Below are positions 3,591 to 14,181 of a stretch of 45,069 bases of DNA, in pieces (positions within the stretch are counted from its first letter, which is position 1; every line of letters begins with the position of its first letter). The notes under the pieces are model-generated. The model made no database searches, was not told the DNA's origin, and saw nothing but the letters and a program-made list of their open reading frames with translations. Where the stretch lies: the sequence record PZ334583.1; one strand, given 5' to 3'. This DNA is from a phage. A program made the translations under genes and the position numbers.

Positions 3591-3669
3591 ATAAGATAGC
3601 GCCGTTCTTTTGAGCGGCCTATTACTAGCCAATCTTCATAGGGAGGGTTGGAAAGTAATAGGAGATAGT

Positions 3670-5568
3670 ATGGCTAAATTAACCAAACCTAATACTGAAG
3701 GAATCTTGCATAAAGGACAATCTTTGTATGAGTACCTTGATGCGAGAGTTTTAACATCAAAGCCGTTTGGTGCTGCAGGTGACGCCACTACTGATGATAC
3801 GGAGGTTATAGCTGCTTCATTAAACTCTCAGAAAGCTGTCACAGTCTCAGATGGTGTATTCTCTAGCTCTGGTATTAATAGTAATTACTGTAACTTAGAC
3901 GGTAGGGGTAGTGGCGTGCTAAGTCACCGTTCCAGTACAGGTAACTACTTAGTATTTAACAATCTACGTGCAGGTCGCTTAAGTAATATTACGGTAGAAA
4001 GTAATAAGGCGACTGATACAACTCAGGGACAGCAGGTATCTCTTGCTGGTGGAAGTGATGTTACTATAAGTGACGTTAACTTCTCAAACGTTAAAGGTAC
4101 TGGTTTCAGTTTAATAGCATGCCCTAATGGTGAGCAACCTAACGGGCTTATGATTAAAGGCATTCGAGGTAGCTACTCCGGCTATGCTACTAATAAGGCC
4201 GCTGGATGCGTACTTGCTGACTCCTCAGTTAACTCTCTCATAGATAACGTCATTGCTAAGAGCTATCCTCAGTTTGGAGCTGTAGAGCTGAAAGGTACAG
4301 CCAGTTATAACATAGTAAGTAATGTTATAGGGGCAGATTGCCAACATGTAACTTACAACGGCACTGAAGAGGTAATAGCTCCTTCTAATAACCTTATCAA
4401 GGGTGTGATGGCTAATAATCCTAAGTATGCAGCGGTTGTTGCAGGCAAAGGAAGTACGAACTTAATCTCAGACGTGCTCGTAGATTACTCAACTTCTGAT
4501 GCTAGGCAGGCTCATGGTGTTACCGTAGAAGGGTCTGATAACGTCATAAATAATGTTCTTATGTCAGGATGTGATGGTACTAACTCTTTAGGACAAAGGC
4601 AGACTGCTACAATTGCACGCTTTATAGGTACAGCTAATAACAACTATGCGTCTGTATTTCCTAGCTACAGTGCTACAGGTGTTATTACTTTCGAATCCGG
4701 CTCTACCCGTAACTTCGTAGAGGTAAAGCACCCTGGCAGGAGAAATGACCTTCTCAGTTCTGCTAGTACTATTGACGGTGAAGCTACTATTGACGGCACT
4801 AATAATAGTAACGTAGTGCACGCACCCGCCTTAGGGCAGTACATAGGTAGTATGTCAGGTAGGTTCGAATGGCGGATTAAGTCCATGTCACTACCTTCAG
4901 GCGTTCTTACTTCGGCTGATAAGTACAGAATGCTTGGGGATGGTGCTGTGTCATTCGCTGTAGGTGGGGGCACTTCTTCTCAAGTTCGCCTATTTACTTC
5001 TGATGGTACTTCTCGGACAGTGTCCCTCACCAACGGTAACGTGCGTCTTTCTACCAGTAGCACAGGATATTTGCAGTTAGGTTCTGATGCAATGACCCCA
5101 GATAGTACTGGTACATACGCATTAGGTTCCGCCAGTAGAGCATGGTCTGGCGGTTTTACTCAATCAGCATTCACTGTTGTCTCAGATGCTAGGGATAAAA
5201 CAGAGCCCCTTATTATCTCAGATGCTTTACTGGATGCTTGGTCTGAAGTTGACTTTGTGCAGTTTCAGTACTTGGACCGAATTGAGGAGAAGGGTGCAGA
5301 CTCAGCTAGATGGCACTTCGGTATCATCGCTCAGCGAGCTAAGGAGGCTTTCGAACGTCACGGTATAGATGCACACCGCTACGGCTTCTTGTGCTTCGAC
5401 AGTTGGGATGATGTATACGAGGAAGATGCCAATGGCTCTCGTAAACTGATTACACCAGCAGGTTCCCGCTACGGTATTCGTTACGAGGAAGTACTGATAT
5501 TAGAGGCTGCATTGATGCGACGGACTATTAAGCGTATGCAGGAAGCACTAGCTGCCATTCCTAAGTAA
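3670..5568 (+). CDS. Tailspike 1: beta-helix capsule depolymerase-like with C-terminal intramolecular chaperone (peptidase S74) domain
   Basis: ATG 3670 (MAKLTKPNTEG...) with RBS GGAG; Ser/Thr/Gly/Asn-rich repetitive body typical of a beta-helix; C-terminus VSDARDKTEP...WHFGIIAQ...GIRYEEV matches the auto-cleaving chaperone domain of endosialidase and K5-lyase tailspikes. Confidence 0.9.
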   Translation: MAKLTKPNTEGILHKGQSLYEYLDARVLTSKPFGAAGDATTDDTEVIAASLNSQKAVTVSDGVFSSSGINSNYCNLDGRGSGVLSHRSSTGNYLVFNNLRAGRLSNITVESNKATDTTQGQQVSLAGGSDVTISDVNFSNVKGTGFSLIACPNGEQPNGLMIKGIRGSYSGYATNKAAGCVLADSSVNSLIDNVIAKSYPQFGAVELKGTASYNIVSNVIGADCQHVTYNGTEEVIAPSNNLIKGVMANNPKYAAVVAGKGSTNLISDVLVDYSTSDARQAHGVTVEGSDNVINNVLMSGCDGTNSLGQRQTATIARFIGTANNNYASVFPSYSATGVITFESGSTRNFVEVKHPGRRNDLLSSASTIDGEATIDGTNNSNVVHAPALGQYIGSMSGRFEWRIKSMSLPSGVLTSADKYRMLGDGAVSFAVGGGTSSQVRLFTSDGTSRTVSLTNGNVRLSTSSTGYLQLGSDAMTPDSTGTYALGSASRAWSGGFTQSAFTVVSDARDKTEPLIISDALLDAWSEVDFVQFQYLDRIEEKGADSARWHFGIIAQRAKEAFERHGIDAHRYGFLCFDSWDDVYEEDANGSRKLITPAGSRYGIRYEEVLILEAALMRRTIKRMQEALAAIPK

Positions 5569-5653: not shown

Positions 5654-7837
5654 ATGCTACAAAGATTAGGGGCAATGTTTGTTCGGTATAAAAATAAAGT
5701 AGGTAATGCTATCGAGCGTACACTACAAAGTAAATTACAGGATGTAGTCAGTGTAAAGGACTATGGCGCCATTGGTGATGGGGTATATCGTTCACTTGGT
5801 GATAAATTTACCACGTTAAGTATCGCACAAGTAGTATACCCACATGCTGAAAGTTTAACTCAATCGCAAGATTGGGCGGCTATTCAGGCTGCACTTAATT
5901 CTCACTCAAAAGTGTACATTCCAGCAGGTAGATACATGCTATCTGATACCATTGAGATGAGCGGAGGTCAAACTCTGCAAGGTGACGGTATTGACTCTTG
6001 GGTTGCAGGTTATGCTGGGTTTGTACAAGATAGGCAAGGCACTCACCTTATAATGGTGGGAGATGGCAATAAGAAGTATACATTAGATCATGTATCTAAC
6101 TTCGATGTAGAAGGTGGTGTCATAGACAACCCAGCTAAGAGTGATTCTTATACTGCCACTGCACCTTCCCCTAATTACTCATTTACTAACTTCACTAATG
6201 CTAACGCCTCTGGTGCACAACGTGCTACATTGAAACCTTTCAGCGTAGCATTACGTTGCACAGGTCACGGTGGTGTTTACCTTCGTGACTTCCGTATTGT
6301 GCCTAATCACAGAGGGCAAGAAGGTTATAAGGATGAGTTGTCAACTGCATTAGGGGACGCATGGGATGTAGGTATTTGGCTGGAGAATACATCTGACTCA
6401 GTGTTATCTTCTGTGCAAGCAGTAGGTTACTGGCGCATTGCAGGTGTTATGAAGACTTGTATACCACAAGATGGTTCCTTTGTTGGTGGAGAGCGTGATA
6501 GGATATACAATTGCACATTACAAGGTTATCGTGGCTTCTTAGCACGTTCGCATGATACTTACCAAGTAGAAGAAGTATCAGGTAACACTGTATCGATTAA
6601 GTGGTCTGCATCTCACACTTTCGAACCTTCTGGTAAAGTTCGTATCCAAGGGAAAGACCGTAGTTATACTAGCCTGTCTGTATCTGGTGACAAATTAGTT
6701 TTCACTGGTATTGACGATGTATCAGATATTAATACCAAGAGCTATGTGAGAGTTTCAGGGTCTTCATTCGGAATGTCTGCTACTCAACTAAATAACACAT
6801 ACATCGCTGCATTAAACCATCATGCTCGCTTGCCAGCGACCTCTAATCTTTTAGATAATAGGTTTTCTACTTCGGCAGCTTGCTATGAAGTTGCAGGTGA
6901 ACCAATTCGTGCCATAAAATTATCTAACTGTACTGTCATTACTTGGGATGACATCTTAGGTATGACTGGTGGTATTAGGGACTTCCAGACGACAGATACT
7001 TACTTCGAGTCTCAGCCTTTCCGTACTTCTGTGCAAGGCTTGGCAAGCACCACACAACCTGCTGGTTCTCGCATGATTGCACTTCGTGGACGTCAAGGTT
7101 CTAAAACTACAGGCTATCAAGCTATCGGTTGTACTTATGGGCCGGGTGTAGACCTAAGCCCTCGTTATGAAAGCGATGTATCTCGTTACACAACTTCCGG
7201 TGGTATGTTCAATCCAAGAGAAGATTTGAACACAACTAAGCAGTTACCAATGAGGCAAGACGCTACTGAGCTATCTTCTACTTCTGGCTTATTCCTTACA
7301 CATGCTGTAGGTGGGAAGGCCTATGTTGGCGCTACCTCTGGTGATGCAACGCTTCAATCTAGAACTGGATCATTGAATATCCAATCAGGACTTCGTGTAC
7401 GCATTGGTGGCACTGATGGTAGTGGTTGGTATATTGCTGACAGTGCTAAGTTGACACCTACTGCTGACAATGCAAGGGCTTGTGGACAACCTAATGGACG
7501 ATGGACTGTTGTCTATGCTGTTAATGGTACAATCCAGACTTCTGATGGTAGATTCAAGGAAATCCTTGAGATTGAACAGGCAGAACTTGATGCTGGTCTT
7601 GAATTATCAGCAAACCTAATTAAGTATCGGTGGAATGGGGAAGATAAAATTCACTTTGGTTGCATAGCACAAGAAGTGATGTTAATCCTGGAGAAACATG
7701 GCCTAAACCCATTACAATATGATATGGTTCAGTATGATGAGGAGGCAGACATCTTTGGGGTAAACTATGCTGAACTCAACAGCTTCTGTATTGCAGCATT
7801 ATCGAGGAAGTTAAATGCCATTAATCAGATCAGTTAA
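5654..7837 (+). CDS. Tailspike 2: pectate-lyase-like beta-helix with C-terminal intramolecular chaperone (peptidase S74) domain
   Basis: 727 aa; RBS AAAGGAGG; VKDYGAIGDG motif (pectate_lyase_3-type beta-helix N-cap); C-terminus TSDGRFKE...IHFGCIAQ...GVNYAEL is the S74 chaperone. Confidence 0.9.
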   Translation: MLQRLGAMFVRYKNKVGNAIERTLQSKLQDVVSVKDYGAIGDGVYRSLGDKFTTLSIAQVVYPHAESLTQSQDWAAIQAALNSHSKVYIPAGRYMLSDTIEMSGGQTLQGDGIDSWVAGYAGFVQDRQGTHLIMVGDGNKKYTLDHVSNFDVEGGVIDNPAKSDSYTATAPSPNYSFTNFTNANASGAQRATLKPFSVALRCTGHGGVYLRDFRIVPNHRGQEGYKDELSTALGDAWDVGIWLENTSDSVLSSVQAVGYWRIAGVMKTCIPQDGSFVGGERDRIYNCTLQGYRGFLARSHDTYQVEEVSGNTVSIKWSASHTFEPSGKVRIQGKDRSYTSLSVSGDKLVFTGIDDVSDINTKSYVRVSGSSFGMSATQLNNTYIAALNHHARLPATSNLLDNRFSTSAACYEVAGEPIRAIKLSNCTVITWDDILGMTGGIRDFQTTDTYFESQPFRTSVQGLASTTQPAGSRMIALRGRQGSKTTGYQAIGCTYGPGVDLSPRYESDVSRYTTSGGMFNPREDLNTTKQLPMRQDATELSSTSGLFLTHAVGGKAYVGATSGDATLQSRTGSLNIQSGLRVRIGGTDGSGWYIADSAKLTPTADNARACGQPNGRWTVVYAVNGTIQTSDGRFKEILEIEQAELDAGLELSANLIKYRWNGEDKIHFGCIAQEVMLILEKHGLNPLQYDMVQYDEEADIFGVNYAELNSFCIAALSRKLNAINQIS

Positions 7838-7964
7838 GCAAAGTGCTGTACGCCAGAACACAGAAGAACCTATTCAATCAGGACGTAACCCTAAGCAGGC
7901 TTATGCCATTGCCAAGGATGTACAACGTCGTGCCATGAAGAAACCTTCTGCATCTTCTGCGTAA
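7815..7964 (+). CDS. Small basic ORF (49 aa) overlapping the tailspike 2 stop
   Basis: ATG 7815 with RBS GAGGAAG 7803..7809; MPLIRSVKQSAVRQNTEEPIQSGRNPKQAYAIAKDVQRRAMKKPSASSA; last ORF before the terminal non-coding region. Confidence 0.35.
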   Translation: MPLIRSVKQSAVRQNTEEPIQSGRNPKQAYAIAKDVQRRAMKKPSASSA

Positions 7965-7976
7965 GCAGGTTAATAT

Positions 7977-8020
7977 CTTAGTGTACACAAGGGCAGACCT
8001 AGGTTTGCTCTTAGTGTATT
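7977..8020. repeat. Right-flank array of CTTAGTG heptamer repeats (SRR-like)
   Basis: cttagtgtacacaagg...ctcttagtgtatttac; same heptamer family as the 8320..8920 array. Confidence 0.5.
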
Positions 8021-8034
8021 TACAATGGAGGTCT

Positions 8035-8050
8035 TATATATATATATATA
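8035..8050. repeat. (TA)8 dinucleotide repeat
   Basis: tatatatatatatata read directly. Confidence 0.9.
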
Positions 8051-8147
8051 CCTATGGAAGCAATAGTAAGTTGCCTATGCTTGTTGATAGGTTTCGTTAT
8101 AGGCTTAATAGTAAATCCTTAGTCCTGTACAAGGGTTAACCAAAGTC

Positions 8148-8162
8148 AAAAAAAAAAAAAAA
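8148..8162. repeat. A15 homopolymer
   Basis: 15 consecutive A read directly, followed by a GC-rich block ctcgccctcgccctcgcc. Confidence 0.9.
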
Positions 8163-8319
8163 TTTGATGTAGGCGTGTGTCAGCTCTCTCGCCCTCGCCC
8201 TCGCCGGGTTGCCCCCATAGGGTGGCCTGAGGGAATCCGTCTTCGACGGGCAGGGCTGATGTGCTCCTTGGATAGTACAAGGGAGGCGGAGGGAACGCCT
8301 AGGGAGGCCTAGGAATGGC

Positions 8320-8920
8320 TTAGTGGTGGACAAGGTGATTGCCTTAGTGAAGCCTCTTAGTGCATTCCTGAGGCCATTCAGGGCGTTTATGAGGTATTGA
8401 CAAGATGGAGGGGGGCGTGGGCTATCTGTTCGTTTCGTTCACTCCGCTTGCGCTACGTTCACTCGCTCACGTGTACCTTAGGCTATTCCTTTATGGATAG
8501 CTTAGGTTATAGCTTAGTGGCCTACCTTAGTTATAACCTTAGTGCATAGCTTAGTATCAGCTTAGTAGTGTACCTTAGTAAGTCTTAGTGTCTTCTCTTA
8601 GTGATTGCACATGCAAGCATGTAAGATGCCATTAGGTCGCGGTCGGTAGACCGCTAAAGAAGGAGAATAGTAATAAGATGCAGTAGGAGGAACACCAGAA
8701 GCCTAGCCAACCTAAGCTATCCTAGCTCTATATCTATTGCTTTTCCTTAGTCTAACACGTTAGACAACCTATCTTTTTCTTAGTGATGGTAACTTAGTGT
8801 TGACAAGATAATCTTAGTGTAATACTATGCATCACGTAGGCGGTGCTGAGGCACCTAGTAGCCAGCTAGTAAGGCATACGAAGAGACTAGCGCTTACATT
8901 GCTCTTTAACAATTTGCTTA
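8320..8920. repeat. Left-flank array of about 20 dispersed CTTAGTG / AGCTTAGT heptamer repeats (SRL-like), interspersed with host-type promoters
   Basis: ggcttagtgg, gccttagtga, cctcttagtg, tagcttaggttatagcttagtggcctaccttagttataaccttagtgcatagcttagtatcagcttagtagtgtaccttagtaagtcttagtgtcttctcttagtg, and further copies at 8780..8920. Confidence 0.7.
8800..8828 (+). promoter_or_regulatory. Candidate host sigma70 early promoter
   Basis: TTGACA (8800..8805), 17-nt spacer, TACTAT (8823..8828); sits in the early leader as the T7 A promoters do. Confidence 0.4.
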
Positions 8921-8971
8921 GTGTAACCTATGTATGCCGTGGTTAACTACTTATTGAATGAGGTATTAACT

Positions 8972-9151
8972 ATGACATTAAACAACCGTGAACTGTCCGT
9001 TATCTTCACTCTGTTGTGCTACATGATTCGTAACAACGAATTACTTACAGACGATGAGTTAGCCTTGTATCACCGCTTTCTTAACGAAGGTTGGACCGAT
9101 ACAGTTAATCAATACCGTAACATGATAGATGAGTTGAGGGAGGGTAAATAA
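8972..9151 (+). CDS. Early hypothetical protein (59 aa)
   Basis: ATG 8972 with GAGG 8 nt upstream; ORF-track frame 8930..9151. Confidence 0.5.
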   Translation: MTLNNRELSVIFTLLCYMIRNNELLTDDELALYHRFLNEGWTDTVNQYRNMIDELREGK

Positions 9152-9375
9152 TGTATCAACATGAGGTATTCTTTGAATCAGCTAGCGAAGCTATTCGCTT
9201 CCGTGATGATATGATGCAAGCTGGCGTAGGTGTTGATGTGTATCACTATTTGATAGATTACGACACTGAATATCACCGAGTTACCTTAGTGACTGAGTAT
9301 GATAACCAAGTCATCACTGAGTACTTAGGCAGTGAAGATTACGATTACGATGAAGTAATCACGACAAATCTCTAA
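9151..9375 (+). CDS. Early small highly acidic protein (74 aa), possible DNA-mimic-type anti-host factor
   Basis: RBS GGGAGGG; Asp/Glu/Tyr-rich (EYDNQVITEYLGSEDYDYDEV); TAATG overlap with the upstream gene. Confidence 0.6.
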   Translation: MYQHEVFFESASEAIRFRDDMMQAGVGVDVYHYLIDYDTEYHRVTLVTEYDNQVITEYLGSEDYDYDEVITTNL

Positions 9376-9383
9376 ATTAACTG

Positions 9384-9412
9384 TTGACAGCCACGGCATA
9401 CAAGGTTACATT
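9384..9412 (+). promoter_or_regulatory. Candidate host sigma70 early promoter
   Basis: TTGACA (9384..9389), 17-nt spacer, TACATT (9407..9412). Confidence 0.35.
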
Positions 9413-9504
9413 AAGCATCAAGACGGCGACGTCTTTAAACATCCCGCTCTTTAACAATATGGTTTGTGTCTTGATAGGCTAACTAACTAACTAAGGTAAT
9501 TATC

Positions 9505-9615
9505 ATGAAAGGTTTAATTTGTGTAGAACGTATGGTCAATGGTAAAATTGAAATATTACCACTGGAAAACCAATCTAGCTTCAAAGAGTGGTATGGCTGT
9601 TTCTCACTGATTTAA
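9505..9615 (+). CDS. Small early ORF (36 aa)
   Basis: ATG 9505 after a (CTAA)n three-frame stop element and AAGG; MKGLICVERMVNGKIEILPLENQSSFKEWYGCFSLI. Confidence 0.3.
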   Translation: MKGLICVERMVNGKIEILPLENQSSFKEWYGCFSLI

Positions 9616-9766
9616 GGCAAAGGCTGGCACTAGTCAGCCTATCAAGGCGCAAACCAAGCTCTTTAACAATTTGGATGGCAGCTTCTTAGTCTGGATAGGT
9701 TAAACCTAGGGGATTCTCTTGAGTCTCCTATAATGTAACCTAACTAACTAAATGAGGATTAATAAC

Positions 9767-10123
9767 ATGGCTATGTCTAATATGACTTACTCTCAGGTTT
9801 ACAACACCGCTCATGCTGCATTAGTTGAACGTATCTGGAATGATGCTATTGATTGTATTGATAACGCACATGATGCAATCCATGATGCGGCGGATAGTGC
9901 TGTACCAATCTATTATGCTGACATCTTCTCCGTGATGGCGAGTGAAGGAATTGATCATTTCTTCGAAGACTCCGACCTGATGCCAGACACTAAGGATGTA
10001 ACGGTAGTATTGCAAGCCCGTATCTATGAGCAACTCACAATTGATCTATGGGAACGTGTTCAGTATATGATTGTTGAATACATCAACTCCGCCGCATATT
10101 TAGAAGAAAAAGAGGAAGAATAA
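9767..10123 (+). CDS. ocr: Ocr-like DNA-mimic anti-restriction protein (T7 gene 0.3 homolog)
   Basis: MAMSNMTY...[29 protein letters not shown]...[13 protein letters not shown]...[15 protein letters not shown]...EEKEEE closely matches the T7 Ocr sequence as I recall it; acidic; early-region position. Confidence 0.85.
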
Positions 10124-10124
10124 G

Positions 10125-10238
10125 ATGGAAAAGTTATACAACTTTATCTTTTCAGACGGTGTAACCCTGAAGTGTTCCCTACGACTCGCACAAATTCGTG
10201 AGGAAGTACTAGGCACTACATACAAACTATTTAGCTGA
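10125..10238 (+). CDS. Small early ORF (37 aa)
   Basis: ATG 10125 directly after the ocr stop, RBS GAGGAAG; MEKLYNFIFSDGVTLKCSLRLAQIREEVLGTTYKLFS. Confidence 0.35.
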   Translation: MEKLYNFIFSDGVTLKCSLRLAQIREEVLGTTYKLFS

Positions 10239-10251
10239 CACTATAAGAGAA
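10229..10251 (+). promoter_or_regulatory. Variant phage promoter-like sequence (the +1 G is replaced by A)
   Basis: atttagctgacactataagagaa; the -17..-1 region is closer to the SP6 consensus than the main family, but the CTATAG initiation box reads CTATAA. Confidence 0.35.
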
Positions 10252-10314
10252 GGCTTAACAAGGCGTTGCTACGGTAGCGCCTGATTAAACTTTCACTTAC
10301 TAGGAGTTAAGACT

Positions 10315-10542
10315 ATGGATTTAGATAGCATCATTATGGCATTTGCTCTTATTGGCTTAAGCTGGTGCTCCTATCACCTTTACCGTGAGTTCTTATTTGA
10401 TAAAGCTAAACGCAAACTAAGAAAGGAAGGCGGTAATTACCTTTGTGTAAGAGGTGGGCTTGTAGAATACATTGCACCTAACGGCACGGAATGCGCCATT
10501 AGCAAAGATGCATTTATAGAAACGTGGCATTACATCAAGTAA
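10315..10542 (+). CDS. Early small membrane protein (75 aa)
   Basis: RBS AGGAG; N-terminal hydrophobic helix IIMAFALIGLSWCSYHLY. Confidence 0.55.
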   Translation: MDLDSIIMAFALIGLSWCSYHLYREFLFDKAKRKLRKEGGNYLCVRGGLVEYIAPNGTECAISKDAFIETWHYIK

Positions 10543-10605
10543 CTAGCCTATAGCCTACCTGAGTGGGCTATGTGATATTTACTTACACTATATAAGGTGA
10601 CTATT

Positions 10606-11490
10606 ATGACTACTGAAAACATCCTCCTGTCTGTCCGTGAAGCTGCAACCGCTGAGATTAAGCAGCATTTGGATAATATCGGCACTTCTTACATCAAAGT
10701 TGGCGCTTGTCTGAATGAATTACGCGGTGATTTCGAAGGTCAAAAAGACTTTTTAGCTTATGTAGAATCAGAGTTCGGCATCAAGAAAGCACAATGCTAC
10801 AAGCTGATGAGTGTAGCCCGTGTCTTTGAAGGAGACGAACGCTTTAAAGGTGTGGCTATGCGTGTAATGCTGGCGCTTGTTCCTTTCGCTGATGAAAATA
10901 TAATCATGGAGAAGGCAGCAGAACTCGCCGCAGATGGCAAGCTGGACACTAACGCCGTAAACGCCCTGATTGATCCTAAGAAAGAGACAAAGGCCGAGAT
11001 GGTACAATCTAAGGCTGAGGCGGTAAAACCGCAGGAGAACGCGACTGAGTCCGCAGAATTACAGGAAATGCAAGCGCCGCAGGTAGTGCCACCCGCGAGC
11101 GAGCAGGAGGCCGACGAATCAGCACCTTGGGAAGAGGAAAGCAAGCCGGAAGCGCCTAAGGCCGCGCCACTGGATAACACGGCTAACACCGAGAGTGCCG
11201 CTATTGCTGGCCTTCTGGCACAAATTAAAGCACTGACCGAGCAATTACAGGCAGCTAATGACCGCATTGCCTCCTTAAGCAGCGCACGCGAAAGCAAGAA
11301 AGCAGCCGCGCCTATGCTGCCGCAATTCAAATCTTCCTGCTTCTATGCTCGCTTAGGTTTAAGCGCTGAGGAGGCAACGAAGAAAACAGCAGTTAACAAG
11401 GCACGCCGCGAACTGGTTAAGCTAGGCTACGGCGAAGGCCATGAAGCATGGCCCTTAATCTCTGAGGCAGTAGAAGAATTAACTAAGTAA
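10606..11490 (+). CDS. Early protein (294 aa): N-terminal helical domain, acidic Ala/Pro/Glu-rich linker, basic C-terminal region
   Basis: ATG 10606 with AAGG RBS; low-complexity centre (PQVVPPASEQEADESAPWEEESKPEAPKAAP); immediately upstream of the RNAP gene. Confidence 0.7.
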   Translation: MTTENILLSVREAATAEIKQHLDNIGTSYIKVGACLNELRGDFEGQKDFLAYVESEFGIKKAQCYKLMSVARVFEGDERFKGVAMRVMLALVPFADENIIMEKAAELAADGKLDTNAVNALIDPKKETKAEMVQSKAEAVKPQENATESAELQEMQAPQVVPPASEQEADESAPWEEESKPEAPKAAPLDNTANTESAAIAGLLAQIKALTEQLQAANDRIASLSSARESKKAAAPMLPQFKSSCFYARLGLSAEEATKKTAVNKARRELVKLGYGEGHEAWPLISEAVEELTK

Positions 11491-11553
11491 CCTTATCGGT
11501 GGCATCTTCTTAGTTGTCACCTATTAAGGTTTCTTTCACTAGGAGTAAACAAG

Positions 11554-14181
11554 ATGCAAGACCTACACGCTATTCAACTTCAACTTGAAGAAGAAATGTT
11601 TAACGGCGGTATCCGTCGCTTTGAAGCGGACCAACAACGCCAGATTGCATCCGGTAATGAATCAGACACGGCATGGAATCGCCGCTTATTATCCGAGTTA
11701 ATCGCGCCAATGGCTGAAGGTATTCAGGCTTATAAGGAAGAGTACGAAGGCAAGCGCGGTCGTGCACCACGTGCATTGGCTTTCATTAACTGCGTAGAAA
11801 ATGAAGTGGCAGCGTATATCACGATGAAGATCGTAATGGATATGCTTAACACTGATGTAACCTTGCAAGCTATCGCTATGAATGTAGCTGACCGCATCGA
11901 AGACCAAGTGCGCTTCAGTAAACTAGAAGGCCATGCAGCTAAATATTTTGAGAAGGTCAAGAAGTCACTTAAGGCAAGTAAGACTAAATCATATCGCCAT
12001 GCGCACAACGTAGCGGTCGTGGCTGAGAAGTCAGTAGCTGACCGTGACGCTGATTTCTCTCGCTGGGAAGCGTGGCCTAAAGATACCTTGCTACAAATTG
12101 GTATGACCTTGCTAGAAATACTGGAAAATAGTGTATTCTTCAACAGGCAGCCTGTTTTCATCCGCACCTTGCGTACTAATGGCGGCAAACACGGTGTTTA
12201 CTACTTACAGACTAGTGAACACGTTGGCGAGTGGATAACCGCCTTCAAAGAGCACGTAGCGCAACTAAGCCCTGCATATGCACCTTGCGTTATTCCTCCG
12301 CGTCCGTGGGTTTCACCTTTCAACGGTGGGTTTCATACTGAGAAAGTAGCAAGTCGTATCCGCCTTGTTAAAGGCAACCGTGAGCACGTCCGTAAGTTAA
12401 CTAAAAAGCAAATGCCAGCGGTCTATAAGGCTGTTAACGCCTTACAAGCTACTAAGTGGCAGGTTAACAAGGAAGTATTGCAGGTAGTAGAAGATGTTAT
12501 TCGTCTAGACCTCGGTTATGGTGTACCTTCCTTTAAGCCGCTCATTGACCGCGAGAACAAACCAGCTAACCCTGTTCCTCTTGAGTTCCAACACCTGCGA
12601 GGCCGTGAACTGAAAGAAATGCTTACGCCGGAACAATGGCAAGCCTTTATCAACTGGAAAGGTGAATGTACTAAGCTGTACACCGCTGAAACTAAGCGCG
12701 GAAGCAAATCGGCGGCAACCGTTCGCATGGTTGGTCAGGCCCGTAAATATAGCCAGTTCGACGCAATCTACTTCGTGTATGCACTGGACAGCCGCAGCCG
12801 CGTCTACGCGCAATCTAGCACACTCTCACCGCAATCAAATGACTTGGGCAAGGCATTGCTCCGTTTTACCGAAGGGCAGCGTCTTGATAGCGCTGAGGCG
12901 CTTAAGTGGTTTTTGGTGAACGGGGCGAATAACTGGGGTTGGGATAAGAAAACTTTTGACGTGCGCACCGCTAACGTGCTGGATAGCGAATTTCAAGACA
13001 TGTGCCGCGACATTGCAGCCGATCCGCTGACCTTCACTCAATGGGTAAATGCTGATTCCCCTTACGGCTTCCTTGCATGGTGCTTTGAATATGCGCGTTA
13101 TCTGGATGCACTGGATGAAGGCACGCAAGACCAATTCATGACGCACCTACCCGTCCATCAAGACGGTAGTTGCTCTGGTATCCAGCACTATAGCGCGATG
13201 TTACGCGATGAAGTAGGTGCGAAAGCAGTAAACCTTAAGCCTTCTGACTCCCCTCAAGATATTTATGGCGCGGTTGCGCAGGTTGTTATCCAGAAGAATT
13301 ACGCCTACATGAATGCAGACGATGCAGAGACTTTCACATCTGGAAGCGTCACACTTACAGGTGCAGAACTGCGTAGCATGGCTAGTGCGTGGGATATGAT
13401 AGGAATCACTCGCGGCCTGACCAAAAAGCCCGTAATGACACTACCTTATGGCAGCACACGTCTAACCTGCCGTGAGTCAGTGATTGATTATATCGTTGAT
13501 TTAGAAGAAAAAGAGGCCCAACGGGCTATTGCGGAAGGGCGTACCGCCAATCCTGTACACCCTTTTGATAATGACCGTAAGGACAGCCTGACACCTAGCG
13601 CAGCTTATAACTATATGACAGCTTTAATCTGGCCTTCTATTTCGGAAGTGGTTAAAGCTCCTATAGTGGCAATGAAAATGATTCGTCAGCTTGCACGTTT
13701 CGCAGCTAAAAGGAATGAAGGCTTAGAGTACACCTTGCCTACTGGCTTCATCTTGCAACAAAAGATAATGGCGACAGATATGCTCCGCGTATCTACTTGC
13801 TTGATGGGCGAAATCAAGATGAGTCTACAGATTGAAACGGACGTAGTGGATGAAACGGCTATGATGGGCGCTGCTGCCCCTAACTTTGTGCACGGTCATG
13901 ATGCCAGTCACCTTATCTTAACGGTCTGCGACCTTGTTGATAAAGGGATTACATCTATCGCAGTAATTCATGATTCTTTTGGCACTCATGCAGGTCGTAC
14001 CGCAGACCTACGTGATAGTCTAAGGGCAGAAATGGTGAAGATGTATCAAGGCCATAACGCTCTGCAAAGCCTGTTAGATGAGCATGAAGAACGCTGGTTA
14101 GTAGACACCGGAATCCAAGTGCCAGAGCAAGGAGAGTTTGACCTTAACGAAATCTTAGTATCTGACTATTGCTTCGCATAA
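11554..14181 (+). CDS. Single-subunit DNA-dependent RNA polymerase (SP6/T7 family)
   Basis: 875 aa; [26 protein letters not shown]... and the catalytic C-terminus ...HDSFGTHA... recognised as SP6-type RNAP; RBS AGGAG. Confidence 0.97.

Follow-up and report, generated by a model that had tools for sequence, protein, structure and literature searches.

Bacteriophage T7's Ocr protein (gp0.3; PDB entry 1S7Z, Pfam family PF08684) is a small, acidic, helical protein that dimerizes into a mimic of about 20–24 bp of bent B-form DNA and protects incoming unmodified phage DNA, and it is this T7 protein that the literature on inhibition of type I restriction–modification (R-M) and bacteriophage exclusion (BREX) systems concerns (PMC7261183, PMC3439906). 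Roberts et al. 2012 (PMC3439906) reported that a block at amino acids (aa) 59–91, and D73 especially, is crucial for the anti-type-I activity of T7 Ocr, which remained fully active after neutralization of aa 12–26, aa 25–35 or aa 92–99, or after deletion beyond aa 99. The same paper describes about 15 conserved acidic positions and a fold that tolerates up to 17 substitutions, and cites chemical modification work in which about 16 carboxylates were neutralized before the affinity for M.EcoKI dropped to the level of DNA. In phages related to K1-5 and SP6, Ocr is already known, both from RefSeq/GenBank annotation, most annotated related records labelling the gene “protein Ocr” (as in EEc4, 6948 and vB_EcoP-101101UKE1) or “ocr-like anti-restriction” (as in SP6 gp5, NP_853565.1), and from the literature, where Ocr is explicitly treated as conserved in Vectrevirus phages (PMC13005862, 2026). 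Here an ocr gene at positions 9767–10123 of a 45,069-nucleotide (nt) phage sequence (record PZ334583.1; this whole stretch is referred to below as the window) was analyzed. Since Ocr has already been annotated and published in Vectrevirus, the genus of the window, the gene adds one more allele to a known set and as such matters little; what is added here is a low-charge allele lineage, an exchange of alleles that is precise to the open reading frame (ORF), and the recognition that a leader motif is an rrn-type boxA also present in T7.

The best explanation of the locus, held with high confidence, is that its product is a functional protein of the Ocr (T7 gp0.3) family, with the role against type I R-M and BREX that homology to T7 Ocr would predict. 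A phmmer search against all PDB chains matched T7 Ocr only, the match to 1s7z (E=8.2e-39) running from residues 1–117 to residues 1–117 and giving 75 identical residues out of 117 (64%) in a full-length collinear alignment. A sequence-only reading of the window had proposed such a match over the whole length, and the alignment bears this out, every motif quoted there being present and aligned with T7 Ocr. The Pfam profile PF08684 (“DNA mimic ocr”) matched residues 3–99 at 137.9 bits (gathering score 25), the acidic tail lying outside the match, and the PHROG match was to phrog_2568 (“ocr-like anti-restriction”, E=3e-44). An AlphaFold2 monomer model built from 45 homologues, with a mean predicted local distance difference test (pLDDT) score of 85.2, contained four predicted helices at residues 8–25, 35–45, 50–58 and 76–117, that is, the all-helical bundle with a long C-terminal helix by which the Ocr fold is recognized. 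When this model was compared with the PDB by Foldseek, the eight matches with E<=3e-7 were all Ocr chains, with template modeling (TM) scores of 0.73–0.86, either free or bound to BrxX/PglX, AriA of PARIS, a type I methyltransferase or RNA polymerase; the next match had an E value of 1.9. Judged by sequence, profile and predicted fold, the product is a bona fide Ocr-family member.

The likeness to T7 Ocr covers the N-terminus (MAMSNMTY), the central acidic block, a conserved 17-residue segment and the predicted fold, and it extends to the setting of the gene, since in both phages host-type promoters precede ocr, which belongs to the early genes, and the ocr leader has the same boxA and a hairpin ahead of the Shine–Dalgarno sequence. 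A 15-residue segment is identical between the two proteins. This segment reportedly holds F53 and A57, the residues targeted by the interface mutants of Zavilgelsky. A search for dimer-interface residues in PMC7261183, PMC10149784 and PMC3439906 found only a reference to these mutants. The window Ocr is unlike T7 Ocr in its lower charge and its much less acidic C-terminal tail, and ocr is the first gene in T7 but not in the window, T7 belonging to the subfamily Studiervirinae and the window phage to Molineuxvirinae. ArdA of conjugative elements (PMC2731889) works in the same manner, blocking type I R-M as an acidic, dimeric mimic of DNA; unlike the window protein, however, it is unrelated to Ocr in sequence and fold, and only Ocr entries were matched in the phmmer and Foldseek searches of the PDB.

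In terms of charge, the window Ocr has a strong acidic excess, with 24 Asp and Glu residues against 5 Lys and Arg residues, a net charge of -19 and an isoelectric point (pI) of 4.06, compared with 34 acidic residues and a net charge of -28 for T7 Ocr. Acidic positions lost (in mature T7 numbering) are 12, 16, 26, 29, 32, 64, 96, 98, 99, 106, 107, 109, 110 and 114 and those gained are 28, 39 and 69, for a net loss of 10, the losses outside the central block being clustered at aa 12–32 and aa 96–114. Within the block at aa 59–91, seven of the eight acidic residues of T7 are kept (E59, D62, E66, D67, D73, D76 and E87) and D69 is gained where T7 has G69, so that the block still holds eight. The total of 24 also exceeds the approximately 15 conserved acidic positions mentioned above. 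Because the net loss of 10 compares with the approximately 16 carboxylates that must be neutralized, and because the central block is kept, we infer from the sequence that the window Ocr is active, possibly with a lower affinity than T7 Ocr. Several observations speak against full activity. Only two of 81 full-length homologues have 24 or fewer acidic residues, the median being 34; Phe stands in place of E64 in the critical block; and the combined Mut2+Mut4 variant of T7 Ocr was mildly defective (PMC3439906). Moreover, the losses in the window Ocr are combined in three regions that were tested in T7 only singly or in pairs, so that affinity for type I enzymes could be below that of T7 Ocr.

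Comparison with other phages of the group showed that the gene diverges far more than the DNA around it. Between the window and K1-5, nt identity was 98.2% in the 5′ flank (9376–9766) and 94.9% in the 3′ flank (10124–10320) but 55.1% in the ocr ORF, and the corresponding values for AAPEc6 were 98.5%, 97.5% and 87.6% (ORFs compared: window 9767–10123, K1-5 1575–1907 and AAPEc6 1341–1694, in the coordinates of the fetched records). The divergence breaks at the start codon on one side and at the acidic tail or stop codon on the other, making ocr an ORF-bounded divergence hotspot, and at least three deeply diverged allele classes were found swapped between near-identical Vectrevirus flanks. The allele type of the window was detected by tblastn in 46 phage records at >=80% identity with the ORF intact, the nearest relatives beyond these (T7, Yersinia phages, Serratia phage Pila and similar) being at about 65–70% identity in the same search. 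Ocr proteins of other Vectrevirus phages (gp03 of AAPEc6, YP_009786413.1, those of EEc4, 6948 and vB_EcoP-101101UKE1, and that of DIJ06P1) share the locus, flanks that are 97–99% identical, and the allele family. AAPEc6 Ocr shares 89% aa identity with the window Ocr and the nearest clusters 95–96%, no cluster representative being more than 96% identical in the one homologue search made. The window allele nevertheless stands out from these relatives in lying at the low-charge end of the clade and in its synonymous divergence from AAPEc6 (dS=0.60) despite the near-identical flanks.

Gene 3 of K1-5 and gp3 of K1E also belong to the Ocr family and have the same leader on one side and the same 37-aa gene downstream, but they share only 46% aa and 55% nt identity with the window gene and encode a product of 110 aa that differs at the N-terminus and in which the C-terminal helix is shortened. 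The 64% identity to T7 Ocr against 46% to K1-5 Ocr places the window allele nearer to that of T7 than to that of K1-5. The K1-5 allele type, present in 24 records at >=90% identity, shares about 85% identity with the Ocr proteins of Kayfunavirus and further T7-supergroup phages, which implies ocr exchange between subfamilies. SP6 gp5 shares approximately 58–66% aa identity with the window Ocr, depending on the alignment; it is the fifth annotated gene and has a full acidic tail. Between the window and AAPEc6 alleles, dN was 0.048 and dN/dS 0.08, falling to 0.04 over codons 1–98, and a ratio this low at a dS of 0.60 indicates long-term purifying selection, which supports function. As dS (0.60 to saturated) is much greater than the divergence of the flanks while dN/dS is low, the alleles are considered to be old and to have been moved by recombination. 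Positive selection was considered as the cause of the divergent ORF and rejected in view of the dN/dS values of 0.04–0.08 and a synonymous divergence far above that of the flanks.

These data bear on three other explanations of the ORF. It could encode a true Ocr homologue in which the reduced charge has shifted the target spectrum, being for example weaker against type I R-M while still acting on BREX or host RNA polymerase, or having been selected to escape Ocr-sensing defences such as PARIS (AriA/AriB). The low acidic count is a property of the whole Vectrevirus clade with this allele type (22–30 acidic residues, set against the median of the 81 homologues), it is mainly in the N-terminal helix and the C-terminal tail that charge has been lost, the swapping of diverged allele classes fits a locus of host-defence conflict, and AriA is bound to T7 Ocr in PDB entry 8v45. 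However, the central acidic block and D73, critical against type I enzymes, are kept, and the pairwise dN/dS gives no sign of positive selection; this explanation appears unlikely. Far less probable is a decaying or non-functional ocr remnant carried in the early region: the reduced charge and a C-terminal tail that differs even from the closest alleles (A110, K115) would agree with decay, but the ORF is uninterrupted over its full length and is preceded by a good Shine–Dalgarno sequence, it is intact in the 46 records, the purifying selection described above is long-term, and the model folds confidently into the predicted Ocr fold. A merely compositional similarity (acidic low complexity), the outcome by which the sequence-only reading proposed that it could be overturned, has a negligible probability and is regarded as refuted by the phmmer, Pfam and Foldseek results, given that the longest identical runs (31 and 15 residues) lie outside the acidic tail, that the Pfam match leaves this tail out and that Foldseek returned only Ocr chains.

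The functional Ocr favored here is encoded from the ATG at 9767, which opens the sequence MAMSNMTY; the mechanically called ORF starts at 9752 and also ends at 10123. The later ATG is taken as the real start because of its 8-nt spacing from GAGGA, the N-termini of the homologues, all of which begin at this Met (MAMSNMTY or similar), and a 1-nt indel between the two ATGs in K1-5 that puts the upstream one out of frame. The ATG at 9752, which would give 123 aa, was rejected as a start as it overlaps the Shine–Dalgarno sequence, has no counterpart in homologues and lies in another frame in K1-5. The product therefore has 118 aa, and the length of 119 aa given earlier counted the stop codon.

The window is a genome of the genus Vectrevirus (K1-5/K1E group, subfamily Molineuxvirinae) with an 875-aa single-subunit RNA polymerase, in agreement with the SP6/K1-5-type backbone that had been proposed for it. 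The ocr locus is 93–98% identical to many Vectrevirus records, the top one being OZ035817 (DIJ06P1) with 98.0% over 1.8 kb, and over 25 kb the nearest records share about 96% identity at 88% coverage, which makes the window a new isolate of a known genus. The left-end sequence of K1-5 (TCGCCCTCGCCCTCGCCGGG...) maps to approximately position 8190, inside a GC-rich stretch at about 8186–8330, indicating that the physical genome ends, and presumably the terminal repeat too, lie at about 8190; the window is a circularly permuted assembly whose first ORF (632 aa, position 1) is by its position a candidate terminase gene. The start of ocr is then approximately 1.58 kb from the physical left end, compared with 1,575 bp for its K1-5 counterpart. 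The position of ocr is kept in K1-5 (gene 3), AAPEc6 (gp03), SP6 (gp5), Zindervirus pSL2 and Klebsiella phage K44PH129C1, and an unannotated ocr lies at the equivalent place in Proteus phage PM85, so that synteny extends across Vectrevirus, Zindervirus, Acadevirus and an unclassified Klebsiella phage of the Molineuxvirinae. Upstream of ocr in the window are two small annotated genes and a 36-aa ORF. The earlier description of ocr as the fourth early gene rather than the first holds only if this unannotated ORF is counted; as a peculiarity of the window it does not stand, since a non-first position is the norm in the subfamily, ocr being the fourth or fifth annotated coding sequence in K44PH129C1 and pSL2, gp3 in K1-5 and AAPEc6 and gp5 in SP6. 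The features of the locus are listed in Table 1.

Table 1. Features in and around the ocr locus, in window coordinates; roles of regulatory elements are predicted.
Feature	Position	Strand	Details
Run of 15 A	8148–8162		Directly before the GC-rich stretch equal to the K1-5 left end
Sigma-70-type promoter-like site	8800–8828	+	TTGACA, 17 nt, TACTAT; 10/12 matches; leftmost strong candidate early promoter
Putative rrn-type boxA, copy 1	8901–8912	+	Downstream of the promoter-like site at 8800
Sigma-70-type promoter-like site	9384–9412	+	TTGACA, 17 nt, TACATT; 10/12 matches; nearest candidate host promoter upstream of ocr
Putative rrn-type boxA, copy 2	9446–9457	+	Promoter-like site at 9384 about 30 nt upstream
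Module: boxA, (CTAA)4, 36-aa ORF and small hairpin (GGCTGGCACTAGTCAGCC)	9446–9657		Between the promoter-like site at 9384 and the ocr leader; bounded by boxA copies
(CTAA)4	9479–9494	+	Upstream of the 36-aa ORF
36-aa ORF, unannotated	9505–9615	+	Not annotated in K1-5 or AAPEc6
Putative rrn-type boxA, copy 3	9658–9669	+	In the ocr leader
Irregular hairpin, 66 nt	9686–9751	+	dG -27.1 kcal/mol, z=-4.0; between the third boxA and the Shine–Dalgarno sequence
(CTAA)3	9740–9751	+	TAA at 9741, 9745 and 9749; forms the 3′ arm of the hairpin's lower stem as well
Shine–Dalgarno sequence GAGGA	9754–9758	+	8 nt upstream of ATG 9767; conserved in K1-5 and AAPEc6
ocr coding sequence	9767–10123	+	357 nt = 118 codons + TAA; Ocr-family DNA-mimic protein
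37-aa ORF	10125–10238	+	Directly 3′ of ocr; homologue of K1-5 gene 4; phrog_11746, E=3.5e-28
SP6-type phage RNA polymerase promoter-like sequence ATTTAGCTGACACTATAAGAG	10229–10249	+	Leftmost from the genome end; after ocr, overlapping the end of the 37-aa ORF
Single-subunit RNA polymerase, 875 aa	11554–14181		

The arrangement of promoter-like sequences is consistent with ocr being an immediate-early gene that would be transcribed by host RNA polymerase from sigma-70 promoters. The gene lies 3′ of two sigma-70-type sites and 5′ of the first phage-type promoter. The core of the latter, GACACTATA, occurs in 13 copies on the + strand, none of them between the genome left end and ocr, the further cores (G/TGACACTATA) lying at 1905, 3575, 14281, 17079, 17770, 21472, 21935, 23166, 26307, 31639 and 44423 on the same strand. 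As the first phage-type promoter is downstream of ocr, the gene should be read only by the host enzyme. Taken together, the hits of the sigma-70 scan were not enriched, 7 sites being found where 6.6 were expected from shuffled sequences; the sites used here are the two with 10/12 matches that are conserved in relatives. The roles given to the promoters, and likewise to the boxA and hairpin elements discussed below, are those that consensus matches and folding would suggest.

Regarding the “conserved leader motif” noticed in the sequence-only reading, it proved to be real and was identified as an exact match to the rrn-type boxA, GCTCTTTAACAA, with three copies, at 8901, 9446 and 9658 and only in early leaders, where 0.32 would be expected by chance. 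It is identical over 12 nt to the rrn boxA ugcucuuuaacaa (PMC2724277, Table 1) and fits the functional boxA consensus GYTCTTTAANA (PMC5725501), which has three matches in the window, all on the + strand and within 770 bp (8901–9668), against 0.27 expected. Each of the two promoter-like sites is followed by one of these copies. In T7, CGCTCTTTAACAATCTGG is found between promoter A3 and gene 0.3 (813–824 of the fetched record); consensus matches are at 656–666 and 926–936 in SP6 and at 710, 1255 and 1467 in K1-5 (fetched-record coordinates), and each of the eight related loci fetched, as stretches around the early genes, carried between one and three consensus copies. A leader boxA presumably loads Nus factors and suppresses Rho termination, and the copies suggest a use of host Nus-factor antitermination in the early transcription of strictly lytic Autographiviridae. 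No description of boxA in SP6, K1-5 or T7-like phages was found in the literature searched.

The leader of SP6 ocr follows the same order of promoter, boxA-like element, hairpin, TAA-rich tract and Shine–Dalgarno sequence as that of the window, although its ocr-proximal boxA is degenerate (GATCTTTAACAA). The same two-tier hairpin as in the window was also predicted in SP6 (z=-5.9), K44PH129C1 (z=-4.9) and pSL2 (z=-1.9). Its lower stem is conserved (TAGGTT/AACCTA plus the CTAA tract), whereas the upper-stem sequences in SP6, K44PH129C1 and pSL2 are unrelated yet paired. The T7 leader also forms a hairpin between its boxA and Shine–Dalgarno sequence, which we take to be the R0.3 RNase III site, and the hairpin of the window, which ends in (CTAA)3 just before the Shine–Dalgarno sequence, is a candidate RNA-processing site of the RNase III type. 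The consensus that RNAalifold derived from five ocr leaders was weak (-6.0 kcal/mol), a result of the misalignment of the variable upper stems by MAFFT; single-sequence folds were therefore relied on, and the covariation is to be read as qualitative only. A permissive Rfam scan of 7800–11600 found no known RNA family for the ocr leader.

The (CTAA)n tract before ocr places TAA in all three frames, as had been proposed for it, and this TAA-rich tract may also serve as a stop in three frames or give ribosomes an unstructured region on which to load. The SP6 gp1 leader also has three-frame stops, made by a different sequence, CTAACTAACTGAGG. The (CTAA)4 tract at 9479 showed no significant local fold (z=-0.04).

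This second tract is part of a module at 9446–9657 that separates the promoter from the ocr leader in the window and in K1-5, whereas in SP6, K44PH129C1 and pSL2 the promoter sequence corresponding to that at 9384 directly adjoins the leader, from which boxA seems to mark module junctions. The leader and trailer of SP6 gp1 are homologous to the ends of the module, which has the look of an insertion or of modules shuffled at boxA. Its 36-aa ORF matched no Pfam or PHROG family.

A wider reading would join these observations: the early region of K1-5/SP6-like phages would consist of modules joined at rrn-type boxA elements and conserved leader hairpins, with ocr as an ORF-precise exchangeable cassette of several ancient allele classes, one of them common to Kayfunavirus; the low-charge class would be tuned to block type I R-M and BREX while evading Ocr detectors such as PARIS; and host Nus/boxA antitermination would be part of the early programme. 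In this combined form the reading is doubtful; if true, it would mean that Nus/boxA antitermination is used by strictly lytic phages of both the T7 and SP6 types. The low-charge lineage can be regarded as a natural test of the amount of charge that a DNA mimic requires. Vectrevirus phages are therapy candidates against K1 and extraintestinal pathogenic (ExPEC) E. coli, and the Ocr allele carried may help in forecasting the host range among strains that have type I R-M, BREX or PARIS.

In addition to these elements, a palindromic stretch at 10238–10309, between the phage promoter and a 75-aa gene, probably forms a hairpin downstream of the promoter. An Rfam microRNA (miRNA) model matched this stretch on both strands, but below threshold (25 and 22 bits; gathering score 97), and these matches were treated as chance. 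The heptamer CTTAGTG occurs in 13 copies on the + strand at 7977–8923, in a non-coding region of about 950 bp spanning the genome end, and in 24 copies in the whole window against 7.6 expected; in the hairpin of the ocr leader, CTTAG is paired with complement-like CTAAG/CTAA tracts. The array presumably resembles the short repeat arrays beside the T7 terminal repeats. Further to the left, two consecutive tailspike-like ORFs of 652 aa (3610–5568) and 727 aa (5654–7837) on the + strand share a C-terminal Peptidase_S74 intramolecular chaperone domain, to which the second adds a pectate-lyase-like N-terminal domain, and together they form the dual-spike arrangement typical of K1-5-like phages.

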